The notes: generated by a model not told the origin, from the letters alone. A DNA stretch of 10,733 nt from a virus (IMGVR_UViG_2740892112_000004:1-10733), one strand, 5' to 3'. Numbered from the stretch's first letter, positions 166 to 10,733 are shown. Program-made: numbers and translations.

Positions 166-211
166 TTTAATTAAATAATTTTCACTACAAAAAGTGCCAT
201 AAATCGCAAAA

Positions 212-233
212 TGACTACACCAGTGACTACACC
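212..233 (+). repeat. Tandem direct repeat TGACTACACC x2 (12-bp period); candidate integrase arm-type sites
   Basis: tgactacacc at 212-221 and again at 224-233, about 75-95 bp from the putative junction; a related tcactacaa lies at 182-190. Function is inferred only. Confidence 0.3.
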
Positions 234-342
234 GTTCGGTGCACTGTATGAAACAACGTGGAACAAATAGACACAAGAAATATACAGGCGGGTCATCTTT
301 CCAGGGGGAAGCGCGCTAATTCATGAGGGGCGTTAATGTTGA

Positions 343-358: not shown

Positions 359-550
359 ACGGGGCTACCGGATTTTTTTCCGGTTAACTGTTAATCAGGC
401 TGGTGGGCTTTACCTGTTTTGTAGGAGTGGTCATTATGACCATTCAGACAATGACCTTAATCAGAACTTTTCGCTAAAAAATGGCGTTGGTCACGTCGTC
501 CGGAAAGCACAAAATCCCGTCAATTTTTAATTAACGGTTAAACCGTCTTT

Positions 551-600
551 TGTCACGGCGTGTCACTGGTTGTCACTCTCCGTCACGGTATGTCGCTACT
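551..600 (+). repeat. Five head-to-tail 10-bp units each beginning (T/C)GTC(A/G)C; candidate protein-binding array
   Basis: tgtcacggcg / tgtcactggt / tgtcactctc / cgtcacggta / tgtcgctact at exactly 10-bp phasing, ending just before the stop codon of the 603-884 ORF. Confidence 0.5.
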
Positions 601-920: not shown

Positions 921-1115
921 GTCCTTCCTGGAATTATGGCCCGTTACGGGGCGGCGACCTCGCGGTTTTTATCTGTTTATGAAAATTTTTCTGGAAAAAG
1001 CATGTCGGTACTTCTCGAACATAACTATTTGTTTTTAAATAGATACACAATAAAAAGAAACGACACGGTAATCATCTAAAATGGCGATTTATGACGCTTT
1101 CATGTCGTTTCTCAG
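921..1115 (+). other. Lambda-type cos site, copy A: cosQ-like flank, cosN (GGGCGGCGACCT at 949-960), and a cosB with R3/I1/R2/R1-like layout
   Basis: ccgttacgGGGCGGCGACCTcgcggtttttatctgtttatgaaaatttttctgg matches my recollection of the lambda cohesive-end region. R-site-like motifs: catgtcggtacttctc (1001-1016) and catgtcgtttctc (1101-1113) direct, agaaacgacacg (1055-1066) inverted, with an AT-rich IHF-like stretch between. Confidence 0.8.
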
Positions 1116-1139: not shown

Positions 1140-1682
1140 TTACTCGCCTTTCTTCTGTAGCAACTTTTCCGGTACGTTTCCGGTTGTTTCTTTCAAGTAA
1201 TCAGCCAGTATCTGTGGGAGGTTGTCGGCAACTCTGGCACTGGCATTACAGGCTTTAACCACTTCCCTTTTAAGCCTATCCAGCATGGCGGGGGTAATCT
1301 GTGGGAAGCTCCTTTGCATAGTAAGCGGGAGGCTGTCCATGATTGATGAAATCTGACTCGCCAGCTTTGAAAGCGCGTACAGGCAAAACTCAGTATCAAT
1401 CACGTCACCGCGATCGCGCTCGTTTTTAAGTTCCTGCGCCTCCGCCTGTGCTGTCAGTAATCTGATCCTGACTCGTAAGAGTTCATCATCATCAATATCG
1501 CCTTTGTCGTTTGTAAGCTGGCTAATTGCATTGTTAACCCTATTGTCTATCACGCTGGCAACATCGTAAAACGCCTCACGGCCTTTACGTTCAACGGGAG
1601 TCACTCCCCACTTGTCGAACGCTGTCGCACTTACACGGCAGCTTTTCGCCATGTTTTTTTTGTTCATCAGGTGCGATTTCAT
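1140..1682 (-). CDS. Terminase small subunit, lambda Nu1-like (175-180 aa; start could be 1682 or the Met at 1667)
   Basis: Full-length resemblance to lambda Nu1 as I recall it. N-terminal NKK..A......V.....W............G.E..YD.A.VI and central/C-terminal LTAQAEAQELKNERD ... TEFCLYALSKLASQISSIMDSLPLTMQRSFP. Similar length (Nu1 is 181 aa). No clear SD at either candidate start. Confidence 0.8.
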   Translation of the reverse strand: MKSHLMNKKNMAKSCRVSATAFDKWGVTPVERKGREAFYDVASVIDNRVNNAISQLTNDKGDIDDDELLRVRIRLLTAQAEAQELKNERDRGDVIDTEFCLYALSKLASQISSIMDSLPLTMQRSFPQITPAMLDRLKREVVKACNASARVADNLPQILADYLKETTGNVPEKLLQKKGE

Positions 1683-1789: not shown

Positions 1790-1850
1790 CTCATAAATAG
1801 CGAAAAACCGCGAGGTCGCCGCCCCGTAACGGGTCCATATGCCGGAAAGG
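1790..1850 (-). other. Lambda-type cos site, copy B (inverted relative to copy A): cosQ-like flank plus cosN (minus-strand GGGCGGCGACCT = plus 1813-1824), no recognisable R sites
   Basis: Minus strand reads tatgggtcctttccggcatatggacccgttacgGGGCGGCGACCTcgcggtttttcgctatttatga. About 85% identical to copy A over roughly 70 bp. Sequence beyond that, toward terS, diverges and lacks GTCGTTTC-type motifs. Confidence 0.75.
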
Positions 1851-5102: not shown

Positions 5103-5306
5103 TGCCCACCTCTACCCACTTTTTTCGCCCACTTTTTACGTTTTCCCACTTCGTCCAACGTGGGAAATTTGGGATTTATATCATCTTGTTTCATAGGTAT
5201 TTTTTTAGTGCCCACTTTTTGGGATATATACACGTGGGAAAGTGGGTAATTTTGTTAAAATTCCGTTAAATCACCCACCTTTCCCACTTTTAATGCCCAC
5301 TTTTTA
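5103..5306. repeat. Iteron array, putative replication origin: at least 8 direct and 3 inverted copies of (G)CCCAC(TTTTT) with AT-rich spacers
   Basis: Direct copies near 5104, 5115, 5128, 5145, 5211, 5274, 5283, 5296; inverted GTGGGAAA/GTGGGTAA near 5160, 5234, 5242. Lies immediately 3' of the helicase gene. Confidence 0.6.
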
Positions 5307-6701
5307 CAGTGGTCCTACATCATCACCGTCAATGTAGATCACGTCGTCTTTTTCCAGTTTGGCTAACCATCGTTTAAGGTGTTTTGTGTCATACCCCAGC
5401 TTTTTCATATCGTCACGTAACAGCGGGATCGTGCACTTGTCGCCGTGCTGTGTGCGTGAACGTATGCATCCCCATAGCGCGGTATGGTTTTCCGTCTTGT
5501 TGCCTGCCTCCTCGATGCGCTCCAGTTCAACGGGAGGGCGCGGCTTATCCACCACCACCAGCGACGTGATTAACTCCCCGTCAGCGTCGGTAAAAAGCTC
5601 CACCACGCGTAAGTCATATGCGGCTTCTTTGAGTTCCTCCGCGTCCTTCATTTTGGTGCATGAGATAACCAGCGCTTCGCTTCCTGCGTCCTCCCTGCGT
5701 ATCCGGTATTCAGCATCCAGCGAAGCACGAAATGCACTGGAACCGCGCGCGCCTTTCGTCTCATCCTTGCCGGAATGGTGAACCACCAGCACCGTGGCCC
5801 CTGTGCGTCGTTTCAGTTCGTCACAACCACGGATAAACGCCCCCATATCACGGGAATCATTTTCATCATTACCACCAAAGCAACGCGCCAGCGTATCCAG
5901 AATAATCATGCGAACAGGTTTACCCGTTTCCCTCTCCACCTGACGGGCAGCGATAACCATTTCATCAACATCAAGCGGGACCGCCGGAAAGATGGGACGG
6001 TTTACCAGATACAGATTTTTCACCTGCTCACCGTGCACAACCTCCCAGGCTTTTACACGACGCGGAACGCCGATACCGCCTTCACCAACCACATAGAGAA
6101 CAGCGCCATGCGCCACCCTGCGGCCTCCCCACTGACGGCCCGTGGAAACGTGACACGCCCACGAACCCGCAAGGAATGATTTATAGGAACCGCTTGCCCC
6201 GTATATGCTGCATAGCGACGATGCCGGAATAATCCCCTTTACCACGTAATCTAATTGCGTGTCGTATCCGGCAGATCCAACGCTCATCGGTAGCGTGGTT
6301 TTTCGCTGGTGGTGTTCTTCCCCTGGCTTTTTCCCCCGCTCCCGTTCCAGATATTCGCGCCAGTTCTCCCGCTTCTGGCCGTGTATCCCTTCGGGGTAAT
6401 AATTCGCATCAGTTACGCCCGCCGCCGCCAGCTTGTGCGCAATGGCATTAATATTTGATGGCCTGATGTGGCCTGCCTTGTACAGCCGGACACAATAGCG
6501 CCCCTCGTCGATGATTCTCAGGTCTGCCAGTTCATCCAGTTGATCATCAGCCAGCACAATGGGAGGCACATTATCGCCAGCCAGTCGCCCGTCCTGTTCC
6601 TGCCACTGTTTCGCATGTGCCCACGCATCACTACCCGCAAAAATGATGACTTCGGTCATCTTGTCGTAAGGCTGTTTTTTTAAGTTCGGTGCGCTTTTCA
6701 T
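5304..6701 (-). CDS. Replication initiator/helicase, RepA-like (AAA_25-type RecA-fold ATPase), 465 aa
   Basis: Walker A-like GASGSYKS, Walker B-like RMIILDTLARCF, VLVVHHSGK motif typical of RepA/DnaB-like helicases. C-terminal about 80 aa could be a DNA-binding domain (inference). AGGGG SD. ATGA overlap with the upstream ORF. Confidence 0.75.
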   Translation of the reverse strand: MKSAPNLKKQPYDKMTEVIIFAGSDAWAHAKQWQEQDGRLAGDNVPPIVLADDQLDELADLRIIDEGRYCVRLYKAGHIRPSNINAIAHKLAAAGVTDANYYPEGIHGQKRENWREYLERERGKKPGEEHHQRKTTLPMSVGSAGYDTQLDYVVKGIIPASSLCSIYGASGSYKSFLAGSWACHVSTGRQWGGRRVAHGAVLYVVGEGGIGVPRRVKAWEVVHGEQVKNLYLVNRPIFPAVPLDVDEMVIAARQVERETGKPVRMIILDTLARCFGGNDENDSRDMGAFIRGCDELKRRTGATVLVVHHSGKDETKGARGSSAFRASLDAEYRIRREDAGSEALVISCTKMKDAEELKEAAYDLRVVELFTDADGELITSLVVVDKPRPPVELERIEEAGNKTENHTALWGCIRSRTQHGDKCTIPLLRDDMKKLGYDTKHLKRWLAKLEKDDVIYIDGDDVGPL

Positions 6702-7694: not shown

Positions 7695-7896
7695 AAAGCA
7701 TCCCCTGAATATTCGTGTTAATCATTCCGGCACGTTTTGTGATTTCCTGTAATGATTCCCTTGTGGCGACAATTGCTTCATCTGGTAAGTGGTAATTACA
7801 CACCACGCGACCTTTATCCACATTGACCAGTAGCTGCCCTGTGAATTTCTCACGAAACTGAATGCGGTTAAGGTCAGTAAGTGACAGATTAATCAT
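7684..7896 (-). CDS. Hypothetical protein, 70 aa (start at internal Met 7896 of the 7684-7938 ORF)
   Basis: Very good AGGAGGT SD 6 nt upstream of the 7896 ATG. Confidence 0.5.
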   Translation of the reverse strand: MINLSLTDLNRIQFREKFTGQLLVNVDKGRVVCNYHLPDEAIVATRESLQEITKRAGMINTNIQGMLYAQ

Positions 7897-8086
7897 GGCG
7901 CACCTCCTGACGAATACGGGCGGCAAATACAGCAACACAACCGGACGGGCAACGGTTACGCGCTTCGCGTTCCGTCCAGGCGGTTACGTGGATGATTTGA
8001 GATTCTCCGGCACTCAGTGCCAGAAAACGCCACACAAAGGCCGTTTGTGTGTGTACAAGGTGTGGTATATGATTTACAGCAACCAT
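7889..8086 (-). CDS. Hypothetical protein, 65 aa, first ORF of the long operon (start at internal Met 8086 of the 7889-8161 ORF)
   Basis: TAGGAG SD 6 nt upstream of the 8086 ATG; downstream of the predicted promoter and leader hairpin. Confidence 0.45.
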   Translation of the reverse strand: MVAVNHIPHLVHTQTAFVWRFLALSAGESQIIHVTAWTEREARNRCPSGCVAVFAARIRQEVRHD

Positions 8087-8117
8087 AACGGCTCCTAGTT
8101 TACGTTGTTGGTTAGAA

Positions 8118-8158
8118 GCCCTGCGAGTGGTAACGACACTTGCGGGGCTTTGTCTTTT
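8118..8158 (+). terminator. Strong 12-bp stem-loop; plus-strand terminator-like (followed by TTTGTCTTTT) and also a 5'-leader hairpin of the minus-strand operon transcript
   Basis: GCCCTGCGAGTG, 7-nt loop, CACTTGCGGGGC (two G-U pairs as RNA), T-rich tract on the plus strand. Confidence 0.35.
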
Positions 8159-8179
8159 CATCGATTACCTTGATAAAGG

Positions 8180-8259
8180 TGTCAGCCACTATATTAGTAA
8201 CGGGTGTCAGCCACGTCAATAGTGTTTTTCCGTTTTCTTGTGTGTATACTGTCAGCCAC
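8180..8259. promoter_or_regulatory. Three direct repeats (G)GTGTCAGCCAC; candidate operator sites in a divergent promoter region
   Basis: TGTCAGCCAC at 8180-8189, 8205-8214 and 8250-8259. The first overlaps the predicted minus-strand transcription start, the second sits in the promoter spacer, the third lies just downstream of a plus-strand TATACT (8245-8250). Confidence 0.5.
8191..8219 (-). promoter_or_regulatory. Sigma70-like promoter for the long minus-strand operon (-35 TTGACG, 17-bp spacer, -10 TAATAT)
   Basis: Minus strand reads TTGACG (plus 8214-8219), a 17-nt spacer, then TAATAT (plus 8191-8196). Predicted start near 8184. Confidence 0.5.
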
Positions 8260-8280
8260 CTAATAACGAGGAAATCAGAT

Positions 8281-8460
8281 ATGGCAACAAAAGCAGTTAA
8301 TGCAAAATCCAAAAAGCTTGAGGCTCGAGTACCACACGCAATAGCTGATGCTGTAGAAAATTTAAAGGAAGATGGCGAAAGTACAGGGCAATTTATCGTT
8401 TCGGCACTTGAAGGCGAGATCAAACGCCGCCAGCGCCGCAAGGCCAAAGAATCAGAATAA
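8281..8460 (+). CDS. Small putative DNA-binding protein, ribbon-helix-helix-like (59 aa; start at internal Met of the 8140-8460 ORF)
   Basis: GAGGAAA SD upstream of ATG 8281. KKLEARVPHAIADAVENL...GESTGQFIVSALEGEI resembles a beta-strand/helix/turn/helix RHH pattern; basic C-terminal tail. Fold assignment is tentative. Confidence 0.45.
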   Translation: MATKAVNAKSKKLEARVPHAIADAVENLKEDGESTGQFIVSALEGEIKRRQRRKAKESE

Positions 8461-8517
8461 TCACTATCAGCGCCGTGGTGTGAGGTATTACGGCGCATTG
8501 CTATGCAGGACAACACA

Positions 8518-8691
8518 ATGACCGATAAAGAATTGACCAAAACATTATCACCGGCACGGAAAAGACGGCGCAGAAAGATAGAGCATGAATCAGAAAGATT
8601 CGCGTCATGTGCTTTTGCCCTTGAGCAATTCCTTAAAGAGTACAGGGAAAAGCGCTCATTGCAGGTATGGCAACGAACTGAACCAGACTGA
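8518..8691 (+). CDS. Hypothetical small basic protein (57 aa; start at 8518, or 8503)
   Basis: AGGA SD 7 nt upstream of ATG 8518. Contains an ARKRRRRK tract. Followed by the terminator at 8787-8814. Confidence 0.4.
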   Translation: MTDKELTKTLSPARKRRRRKIEHESERFASCAFALEQFLKEYREKRSLQVWQRTEPD

Positions 8692-8786
8692 TTGCATTGC
8701 CCACCAGCCTGATAGCGGCTATCATCCCCGTGCTTATGTTTGGGATCACACACACAAACGGCGCAGCGGGTTATCTGTTCAGAAAG

Positions 8787-8814
8787 GCGGCTCCATTTCG
8801 GGGCCGCTTTTTTT
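8787..8814 (+). terminator. Rho-independent terminator ending the plus-strand two-gene module
   Basis: 8-bp GC-rich stem (GCGGCTCC / GGGGCCGC, one G-U), 5-nt loop, then T7 at 8808-8814. Confidence 0.7.
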
Positions 8815-8960
8815 ATACCTGAAAAACCCCAATTTTGTTGTTTTTCAGTTTCACCAGGGCGAACGAATCCCCGCCCACGTTCTGGCGTATATTCAATCTT
8901 CATGGTTATAGCTCTGTGTTCAGATGATTGATGTGTGGCGGCTGCGTGCCGCCAGCGTGA

Positions 8961-9149
8961 TTAATGAACTGCCTTGCAGCTATCCTTCCAGGCCAGAACC
9001 TCGGATAAAGACCAGCCAACGGAACGACCGCCAAGTTTACGACGTGATGGGAATTGTCCGGCCTTTTCCAGGCGGTAGCGACACGTACGGCTAAGGCCGG
9101 TTAGTTTTTCGCATTCTTTTTCACGTATAAACCGATCAGTGCTTAACAC
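8961..9149 (-). CDS. alpA: AlpA-family DNA-binding protein (prophage CP4-57-type regulator/excisionase-like), 62 aa
   Basis: Helix-turn-helix pattern typical of AlpA/Vis proteins (LTGLSRTCRYRLEKAGQFPSRRKLGGRSVGWSLSEVLAW). AAGGGGGGG SD. Lies immediately downstream of int on the same strand. Confidence 0.8.
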   Translation of the reverse strand: MLSTDRFIREKECEKLTGLSRTCRYRLEKAGQFPSRRKLGGRSVGWSLSEVLAWKDSCKAVH

Positions 9150-9482
9150 TATTGCCCCCCCTTTCGTTTCTTAAAGAGTCATCAGGTGTCTTATTGTGTC
9201 GTATTGTTCCCGCTAGAGTGATGAATGGCAAATATTGAGGATGTATGATTTACAGAAAATGAAACAGTAAGAATAAAATCTTTTAAATTCATGTTAATAC
9301 AAAGGCATAAAATATTGTTTCATGCCTTTTTTCTCGCTCTTTAAAGAGTGATTCGCTAGTGTATAAAAAACCAGTGACACATTAAAAATCAGCCACTTAT
9401 AAATCTGTATGCTTTTTCGCCTCTTGTTCGTGGTTGTTCCACATTGTTGCTCATTGTTGCACGTTGTATCTGTTCGCATATA

Positions 9483-9515: not shown

Positions 9516-10733
9516 TTATTTTCTTCTGGCTACTGGTAGCGTGGTTACGTTTTCATGTGTTCCCGCCAGTATCCCTAACCGCTCCGTCCACATATCCAGC
9601 GCATTGCGTTTAGCATCCAGATAACGGGAATGATTATAAACTCGCTGCATTCCTGGCATCTGGTGGCCTGTAAGCTGCTCCACGACATGCGGATCAACGC
9701 CTAAATCGTTCAGCATGGTTGTAAAGGTGCGCCGGATGTCATGCAGTGACCAGTGAGGATGATTAAGCCTCCTGTGCGCTAATCTTCCATACTGCGATAC
9801 GCTGGCCTCCTGTTTCACTTCCCCCAGCAATAAGCCCGTGTGCCTGTTCTGCTCCACCAGCTGCGTGACGAACGGCAGGATCGCTTCCGGTATGGGCCGG
9901 AATATTGCGACCTTCGTTTTGCTGTGCTCCTTCGGAACGGTCCATAGCATTTCCGTAAAATCCCACTCCCCGATCTCCGATAACCTCAGTTCTACCGTTC
10001 TGGCTCCGAAGACAATCAGGAGGCGGATTAACGCGACGTAGTAAGGGGAGAATATTTTTTTGTCCAGTGCCTGCAATAATTCGCCAAGTTCTTTGTTACT
10101 TAAGACACGTTCGCTTATATCCGGTTTTTTCCCAACGTCCGCCACGTTCAGATCGTCCAGAACGTTGCTGATTGCATAGCGCCGCCTACGGCAGAACTTA
10201 AGCGCCTGTTTGCACGCCTGTAGCACGAATCCGGCAGTAACAGGCGTTCGCTTTGCCACCTGGTCAAAACAGGCCAGCCAGTGCCGTAGCTCGCATTTAT
10301 CCAGCGGCATAGCACCAATCTGCTGTATTACGTGATTATTAAGTCGCCTTTTCAGGGCGATATAATCCACGCGGTTTTCCTTTACGTAATACTCAAGCCA
10401 GTAGGTGAGCGCATCGCCAACCGTTACCGGCTTTAACGCTTCCTGTACGGTGTAATTAAGCTCATGACGTGGATTTTTCCCCTCTGCCAGCCATGCGCGA
10501 CACTGGGCGGCTTTTTCCCTGGCTGATTTCAGGCTCAGATCAGGATAACTTCCCAGCTTAATGCGTTCGGGTCGTGTCTCCCTTCCCGTTCCGGCCCTGT
10601 ATGTGAAATACCAGGTCAATTTCCCTGATGTTAAATATTTCACGCTCAGGTTTCCGCCATCACTATAAAACGTGTTTTTCTCCGCTGGCTTACCATGAAG
10701 TTTCCTTAGCAAGGTATCGCTCAGTTTGTTCAT
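9516..10733 (-). CDS. int: Tyrosine site-specific integrase, P4-type (405 aa)
   Basis: N-terminal arm-binding-type region (DGGNLSVKYLTSGKLTWYFTYR). Catalytic-domain pattern with conserved Arg (FGARTVELRLSE), His/Arg box (WSLHDIRRTF) and C-terminal Tyr region (RVYNHSRY). ATG is the last three bases of the window on the minus strand. Confidence 0.9.
   Translation of the reverse strand: MNKLSDTLLRKLHGKPAEKNTFYSDGGNLSVKYLTSGKLTWYFTYRAGTGRETRPERIKLGSYPDLSLKSAREKAAQCRAWLAEGKNPRHELNYTVQEALKPVTVGDALTYWLEYYVKENRVDYIALKRRLNNHVIQQIGAMPLDKCELRHWLACFDQVAKRTPVTAGFVLQACKQALKFCRRRRYAISNVLDDLNVADVGKKPDISERVLSNKELGELLQALDKKIFSPYYVALIRLLIVFGARTVELRLSEIGEWDFTEMLWTVPKEHSKTKVAIFRPIPEAILPFVTQLVEQNRHTGLLLGEVKQEASVSQYGRLAHRRLNHPHWSLHDIRRTFTTMLNDLGVDPHVVEQLTGHQMPGMQRVYNHSRYLDAKRNALDMWTERLGILAGTHENVTTLPVARRK

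Follow-up and report, generated by a model that had tools for sequence, protein, structure and literature searches.

The replication origins of several phages are built from short initiator-binding motifs that recur once per helical turn and are separated by degenerate spacers, as in the lambda origin in gene O, the phi80 gp15 sites, the gene-18-type origins of P22, Sf6 and HK106, and SPP1 oriL in gene 38. Lambda O has palindromic iterons of its own. Iterons are also found apart from an origin; P1 incA and F incC, incompatibility and copy-control loci of plasmids and phage-plasmids, are origin-free arrays that titrate or handcuff the initiator of the replicon that carries them. A different use of tandem sites is seen in the lambda Int arm sites P'1-P'3, which are ~10 bp in size with the consensus C/AAGTCACTAT. 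The PICIs are phage satellites that hijack their helpers at induction, at packaging specificity (through Rpp) and at capsid formation, and their replication is treated as autonomous, with rep and ori. The published Gram-negative PICI ori lies beside rep and has two iteron sets that flank an AT-rich region (Fillol-Salom 2018, PMC6092414). The EcCICFT073-type cos PICIs combine cos1 and cos2 with Rpp (PMC6739421, PMC6092414), and EcCIO42 was described in E. coli strain 042 (PMC6092414).

The DNA analysed here (10,733 nt, the window) is an EcCICFT073/EcCIO42-type cos PICI of E. coli inserted in tqsA, the 5' end of which makes up its first 137 nt. All credible genes of the window are on the minus strand (Table 1). 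The cos and Rpp anatomy matches that published for the type, and positions 430-900 are 99.8% identical to E. coli 042. The cosQ-cosN segments around the two inverted cosN sites (919-989 and 1784-1854) are 82% complementary over 71 nt, and the cosB side beyond cosN differs. A Chi site, GCTGGTGG, at 395-402 on the plus strand, 550 bp from cosN, is kept in relatives, and its active side would face a RecBCD enzyme that entered at the cos-A end and travelled left; a second Chi, within 8699-8713 on the minus strand, is part of a 15-nt perfect inverted copy of the first. The repeat region upstream of the leftward operon is overlapped by a 263-aa minus-strand ORF (8112-8903) that is a doubtful gene. 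The decamers of this region differ among relatives and look like an exchangeable immunity specificity.

Table 1. Features of the window, in order of position
Feature	Position	Strand	Remarks
Paired direct repeats TGACTACACC-ag-TGACTACACC	211-234		60-90 bp from the att core, on this arm
Terminator-like hairpin, then GATTTTGTGC	517-537	-	Downstream of the array in the direction of the PICI operon
Conserved left flank: short palindrome ACGGTTAAACCGT, then CTTTT	534-550	+	Terminator-like hairpin and T-run
Phased array of five 10-bp units	551-600	+	TGTCACGGCG / TGTCACTGGT / TGTCACTCTC / CGTCACGGTA / TGTCGCTACT
Last gene of the PICI operon, 93 aa	603-884	-	PHROG 1561, function unknown; from family searches
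Lambda-like cosN (copy A)	949-960	+	Inverted relative to the second cosN, around the Nu1-like gene
Nu1-like "small terminase" (Rpp type)	1140-1682	-	
Lambda-like cosN (second copy)	1813-1824	-	
Candidate for the PICI's own origin	5104-5307		Directly downstream of rep; GCCCACTTTTT- and ACGTGGGAAA-type repeats around an AT-rich stretch
RepA-family helicase	5304-6701	-	After the gene of a DUF4222 protein
Repressor-like protein	7889-8161	-	
Three copies of TGTCAGCCAC	8180-8259		Between the divergent YlcI/YnfO-family gene and the leftward operon
YlcI/YnfO-family gene, 59 aa	8281-8460	+	
AlpA-like excisionase/regulator	8961-9149	-	
10-bp-period repeat GTGTCGTATT, 2.2 copies	9186-9207		Just upstream of alpA
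10-bp-period repeat TTGTTGCACA, 3.4 copies	9434-9467		Non-coding, between int and alpA
P4-type tyrosine integrase with arm-binding domain (PF13356)	9516-10733	-	
SSB; PerC; lambda gpE-like capsid protein; gpD-like decoration protein		-	

Each unit of the array consists of a GTCAC core (GTCGC in unit 5) and a variable 4-nt spacer, followed by a base, mostly T, that precedes the next core. The array is real and non-random: three phased copies of TGTCAC, with up to two mismatches allowed, matched three times in the window and not once in 200 dinucleotide-preserving shuffles. The word GTCAC by itself is not enriched (19 occurrences in the window, 15.9 expected), and the signal therefore lies in phasing and clustering. 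Because the spacers differ between units, Tandem Repeats Finder sees only 2.8 copies (550-577). The preliminary description had reported five tandem units with an exact 10-bp period, outside any ORF, at the 3' end of the minus-strand gene that follows and about 350 bp from one cos copy. Direct reading bears out each of these points. The array lies 2 bp downstream of the stop codon of that gene and ~350 bp from the lambda-type cosN of copy A, and it overlaps credible coding sequence nowhere, since the sole overlap is of 5 nt with a 51-aa GTG ORF (596-751) nested within the real gene. The description was right about the array itself and overstated the uniformity of the motif: its claim that every unit starts with TGTCAC holds for units 1-3, and units 4 and 5 start with CGTCAC and TGTCGC. 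Of the likeness that it drew to the repeats at 8180-8259, the pentamer TGTCA is what remains. Relatives that keep the array carry unrelated decamers there, with TGTCAGCCAC replaced by TGAATCGCAC in one island (L010, below) and by TGAAACACAC in another (L011), and a kinship with these operators is not supported.

The immediate surroundings of the array are constant. The left flank, in the form TTAAA..CCGTCTTTT(T0-3), directly precedes the array in every variant, even where the sequence further left differs; the E. coli and IMG/VR copies were not chosen for this flank, and the metagenome copies were. The orientation of the array relative to the last PICI gene is also constant across loci. A terminator-like hairpin lies downstream of it on the minus strand, which would place the array within the 3' untranslated part of the PICI operon transcript. 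The last gene itself is found in 1,574 of the 5,426 complete E. coli genomes, with homology that mostly ends at its stop codon, and it occurs in array-positive and array-negative satellites alike, with no co-variation with the array. We considered its 93-aa product as a binder of the array and rejected it, as its homologues are all "hypothetical" and nothing favours a DNA-binding fold. The AlphaFold model has three helices (pLDDT 70), and a fold search with this model gave no significant match (best PDB match, E = 1.3). A scan of genome contigs with the same protein found one locus only.

Further to the left, the att-proximal non-coding region (165-602 in the window, and its equivalents in L010-L014) is a mosaic of short cassettes that are shuffled among PICIs and are often bounded by the palindrome TGGTCATTATGACCA (428-442 in the window). 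Two to three copies of GAAAATATCARCGGGTTAG, together with several small AAATTT-centred palindromes, are present in most array-negative islands and in some array-positive ones (L017, L264, L284), and one cassette has TTCCCGAAAA in common with the phi80 gp15 iteron. The idea that the cassettes of array-negative islands mimic O-type iterons of lambda or phi80 was dropped: a scan of IMG/VR with TCCTCAAATTGAGG gave almost only single, probably chance matches, and a scan with CCGAAAATATCARCGGG gave PICI-like contexts only, with no initiator gene. A comparison of the block 400-606 with phages and plasmids yielded no phage match and one spurious plasmid match.

A motif search across related elements, suggested in the preliminary description, found the array conserved among them and present in 281 of the 5,426 E. 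coli genomes, so that the lack of conservation which that description had named as grounds for refutation is not observed. We compared three array-positive islands, L001 (in tqsA), L010 (phoQ/roxA) and L011 (smrA/abgR), with three array-negative islands, L012 (clpS/cspD), L013 (phoQ/roxA) and L014 (tqsA). L010 is a capsid-forming PICI that encodes capsid, portal, protease, HNH, TerS and TerL proteins itself. Five shorter array-bearing stretches from other genomes (L015-L019) were included; three have the host genes yifB (L015), allC (L017) or yejO (L018) as neighbours, L016 has no host gene in view, and L019, from strain clone D i2, lies beside an IS110 fragment and an Rpp identical to that of L011. 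In a DNA coverage analysis, positions 561-601 were the only segment of the window found in all of L001, L010 and L011 and in none of L012-L014. When all window ORFs were compared with the six relatives by tblastn, no protein was found whose presence or identity tracks the array. Its carriers belong to at least two PICI families, are inserted at tqsA, phoQ/roxA, smrA/abgR and other sites, and use either RepA-helicase or primase replicases, either Rpp or HNH-TerS-TerL packaging, and three different operator sequences. L013, on the other hand, shares 92-100% protein identity with the window almost throughout (AlpA is identical and Rpp 98% identical), yet lacks the array. Since carriers differ in site, operators, replicase and packaging, and close relatives with the same proteins lack it, the array is a self-contained module tied to no PICI protein. 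The YlcI/YnfO gene with its operators was considered as a partner of the array and rejected, both because the segment 8159-8453 is absent from two array-negative relatives and present in the third and because the operator sequences differ among array-positive elements.

Sequence variation within the module was assessed in a set of 48 loci from E. coli genomes, IMG/VR and a metagenome scan, which comprises 18 distinct arrays. Every core in the 18 haplotypes is GTCAC, except for the GTCGC of unit 5 in the window type. The arrays contain 3, 4 or 5 units, and only whole units are gained or lost. In an anchored 25-nt block (middle unit), none of 15 core sites is variable compared with 5 of 10 spacer sites; the spacer variants are GGCG/GGTG/TGTG/GTTG/GTCG/TATG, TGGT/TGGC, TCTC/CCTC/GCTC, GGTA/GATT/GATG/GCTG/AGTA and TACT/CACA/CATA. 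Selection thus acts on the core only, and the array is a selected, phased and autonomous GTCAC module. The conserved core, drifting spacers, whole-unit copy changes and iteron architecture support the general idea of the preliminary description, that of a phased, iteron-like array that would bind protein. Of its more specific suggestions, the links to the element's own helicase, to recombination, to packaging and to the repeats at 8180-8259 were not supported.

The same architecture is widespread in phage replication-initiator genes. Scanning IMG/VR viral contigs for the pattern (GTCAC N5)x3 GTCAC gave at least 120 matching contigs (L020-L139), and among the matches listed 74 of these have three different spacers; the composition-matched control GCTAC gave 59 matches, of which 8 have three different spacers. 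Among the matches listed, 89 of 120 arrays lie within a same-strand open frame of at least 150 aa, and in 86 of the 120 the array-containing frame matches a single initiator profile, which was itself built from 38 of these array-containing sequences; 72 of the 86 cover the N-terminal domain. In PHROG these proteins go under the names replication initiation protein, O-like, DnaD-like helicase loader and primosomal protein; a DnaT-like domain forms the C-terminus of the E. coli type. Within these genes the array follows the N-terminal domain and is itself succeeded by a purine-rich tract (GATAAAGATAAAG or AGAGAAGAGAAG, for example), which is the arrangement known from lambda O, with the origin lying within the gene of its initiator. 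Since the 10-bp period is not divisible by 3, the repeat leaves the peptide pattern VTxxHxxSRxVT in the initiator proteins, so that it is the DNA that is conserved and selected. No homologue of these initiators was found when the window ORFs were compared with the profile (best E = 2.2).

The E. coli representative (L046, 1321-2358) carries two arrays in one gene. The first has six units in the part that codes for the N-terminal domain, with no adjacent purine-rich tract, and the second has five units in the linker followed by GATAAAGATACAG. Phages Evi, Tritos, vB_EcoS-640R1 and others share its N-terminal part, and Rac-like and PPompW prophages share its C-terminal part. Of the 5,426 E. coli genomes, 702 (13%) carry this N-terminal/origin type. 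The motif is not exclusive to initiator genes, because 9 of the 120 arrays among the matches listed lie between terL and portal in unrelated GC-rich clusters. These are near-perfect copies of TGTCACCGTT or TGTCACTGAA, 4-7 in number, in phage-like or GTA-like structural gene clusters with no relation to initiator genes (L021, L032, L053, L055, L089, L111, L115, L133, L136).

Known helpers use other iterons. In phi80, gp15 has annotated in-gene binding sites with the iteron TTCCCGAAAACGGGAA. In HK106, gp51 (L412, 7295-8185) carries three copies of TTGTCCAACGG with an 11-bp period, a 34-nt gap, three copies again, the last of them truncated to TTGTCCA, and an AT-rich tract. HK106 is a cf-PICI helper, and gp51 is a textbook in-gene origin. 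With different iterons in both initiators, neither phi80 nor HK106 explains the array, and the documented helper interactions can thus do without it.

How does the PICI array compare with these systems? It has the core, period and copy number of the viral GTCAC class, with at least four direct repeats at a 10-bp period and an invariant core apart from the single GTCGC. It differs from the in-gene origins in its position, as it is non-coding, lies after the last PICI gene and is neither in nor beside an initiator gene. No purine- or AT-rich tract lies directly 3' of the array on the GTCAC strand, where the end of the last PICI gene is found; the AT-richer flank is on the 5' side and reaches only about the 90th percentile of duplex instability within the window. 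The base after the core is a purine in 89% of phage units; among PICI units, 42% have G at this position and 58% have T or C. The phage spacers are also under coding constraint. Since T or C follows the core in 58% of PICI units and in 11% of those in phage arrays, recognition of the two may differ. A 17-nt identity between the PICI array and a prophage array is not significant, given two shared cores and many possible comparisons. P1 incA and F incC offer a functional parallel in that their initiator-type repeats are detached from the unwinding element, and by this analogy the PICI array could act in trans; those arrays share a replicon with their initiator, whereas the PICI array would sit on a satellite and either counter or exploit the initiator of another element.

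On this comparison the array is best placed among iteron-type arrays, as an orphan example carried by a phage satellite. We tentatively propose that it provides orphan iterons for a helper-type replication initiator supplied in trans. The core, period, copy number and spacer degeneracy of the iteron class, together with the detachment of the array from an initiator gene and from the PICI determinants, would make this the most economical reading. The sites would be arranged head to tail, at one for each turn of the helix, and would be bound by the DNA-binding N-terminal domain of an initiator of the "replisome-organiser" type, from the family with GTCAC iterons in its own gene; a helper or co-resident temperate phage would supply this initiator. 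The array might then titrate or handcuff the phage initiator, which would amount to an incompatibility-like interference with helper replication, or it might simply dock the initiator. Because no unwinding element is found in the canonical position, we would favour docking, titration or handcuffing over a complete second origin firing on the PICI. Both the binding of an initiator to the PICI array and the consequences of that binding are inferred.

Alternatively, the array might bind a factor of the host, or one that all these PICIs have in common, that acts locally at the convergent operon end, for example as a roadblock or insulator between tqsA read-in transcription and the PICI operon or as an architectural site. 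Such a role would fit the constant placement of the array between the plus-strand hairpin with its T-run and the stop of the last minus-strand gene, and the independence of the array from the variable PICI modules is as compatible with a host or universally conserved factor as with a phage factor. The close relatives at the same tqsA site that lack the array (L014) show that it is not needed for insulation there, and we know of no E. coli regulator that matches a GTCAC direct repeat at a 10-bp period, which also makes this explanation unlikely. In the Pho box recognised by PhoB, CTGTCAT recurs every 11 bp at the promoter -35 position, and its 4-bp spacers are AT-rich; the array was rejected as a Pho box on its 10-bp period, its GC-rich spacers and the lack of a promoter-like site downstream. 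The palindrome of matS, GTGAC-N3-GTCAC, and the motifs of OmpR, CreB and TorR also differ from the array.

The array could also be a functionless relic or hitch-hiking minisatellite, acquired once, possibly from a phage origin, and spread by recombination through its conserved flanks. It lies in a region of shuffled cassettes, it is dispensable in that closely related elements do without it, and whole-unit indels are the expected outcome of slippage. Neutral drift of this kind is hard to reconcile with a core that stays invariant while the spacers vary within arrays and between haplotypes, or with persistence in 281 genomes and at least two PICI families, and we hold this explanation to be distinctly unlikely.

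A role as RNA is less probable again. Here an RNA-binding protein would recognise GUGAC repeats near the 3' end of the operon transcript, or a small RNA would be derived from this 3'-UTR. The window type has a suitable layout, with the array between the stop codon (603) and the minus-strand hairpin with its U-run (537-517), and in another flank type a GC-rich hairpin and U-run, read by eye, follow the array on the same minus strand. Against this, an Rfam search gave no relevant match, the minus-strand RNA fold is unremarkable (z = -1.9), in the L010 and L017 types other cassettes put 60-400 nt between the array and the last gene, and a 10-nt period has no particular meaning for RNA.

We regard it as highly improbable that the units are recombination sites, whether they were to serve the PICI integrase as arm-type sites or to be bound by AlpA/excisionase or by the integrase of a lambdoid helper. 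The integrase does have an arm-binding domain, the array comes to lie on an att arm once the element is circular, and units 2-3 contain GTCACT, in agreement with the core of the consensus for lambda arm sites, such that tandem ~10-bp sites with a GTCAC(T) core on an att arm are common to both systems. The array differs from the lambda sites in its five units and GC-rich spacers and does not co-vary with integrase or att. It is present or absent at the same att site with 92-98% identical integrases, as L013 and L014 show, and with identical AlpA (L013 compared with L001), and it lies anywhere between ~410 and more than 500 bp away from the core. Better candidates exist, since every relative carries pairs of the (T/G)(G/T)A(A/C)CTACACC type on both arms whatever the insertion site, ~120 bp from the core on the int-proximal arm. 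These ACTACACC pairs are likely the integrase arm-type sites, and the earlier proposal that the array forms part of the recombination site is not sustained.

Other repeats were seen near the att core and the integrase gene. The paired repeats of the window, together with a similar block of ~50 bp, are present on both sides of the att core (window, 211-234 and 9422-9448; L001, 23510-23560), and an inverted partial copy of the adjoining block lies between int and alpA. The two 10-bp-period repeats near alpA (Table 1) are possible regulatory sites for expression of int or alpA.

Least credible of all is a cis site for the element's own replication, as a crr-like second iteron set, or for packaging, as an accessory cos or terminase site, even though P4 has a second cis replication region 4.5 kb from its ori, much as the array lies ~4.5 kb from the PICI ori, and cosN lies ~350 bp away, with the array on its cosQ side. 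The Gram-negative PICI ori and P4 ori/crr do resemble the array as iteron-type repeats on phage satellites. However, P4 crr has the same iterons as P4 ori, whereas the array and the PICI ori are unrelated in sequence. The element's own iterons, which correspond to the published ori adjoining rep (PMC6092414), swap together with the replicase, and the array does not: in L001, a near-identical island from strain STEC17-183, the origin segment is exchanged along with the C-terminal two thirds of rep, and the array is identical in the window, with its RepA helicase, and in L001, with a primase-type replicase. The suggested second iteron set for the element's helicase is thus not supported. The suggested packaging site fares no better, as the array accompanies Rpp/lambda-cos packaging as well as the HNH-TerS-TerL type, elements whose Rpp is 98-100% identical do not have it, and it lies outside cosQ-cosN-cosB, 350 bp from cosN and so beyond the ~200 bp expected of cos subsites. 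Collectively, the conservation and modularity results argue against own-replicase iterons, operators, integrase or excisionase sites, and cos subsites.

The orphan-iteron reading that we tentatively favour leaves a phage-origin architecture on a satellite, and the comparison on which it draws has a value of its own. It delineates a broad class of phage origins that can be recognised from sequence by in-gene GTCAC iterons, a 10-bp period, a purine-rich tract and the VTxxHxxSRxVT imprint. If the PICI array proves functionless, it would still be a good marker of att-proximal cassette exchange in PICIs. It is also a testable handle, as a single 50-bp module that is present or absent in near-identical islands, those of the EcCICFT073/EcCIO42 type included. 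An orphan array with the architecture of a widespread phage origin would point to cross-talk between satellite and helper at the replication step. We consider it possible, if somewhat doubtful, that this cross-talk takes the form of origin mimicry, in which orphan helper-origin iterons would either capture the initiator and boost the satellite's own replication or titrate or handcuff it and throttle the helper. If true, origin mimicry would add to satellite-helper conflict a layer that has not been described before, and PICIs could exchange it as a module without regard to the genes they carry.
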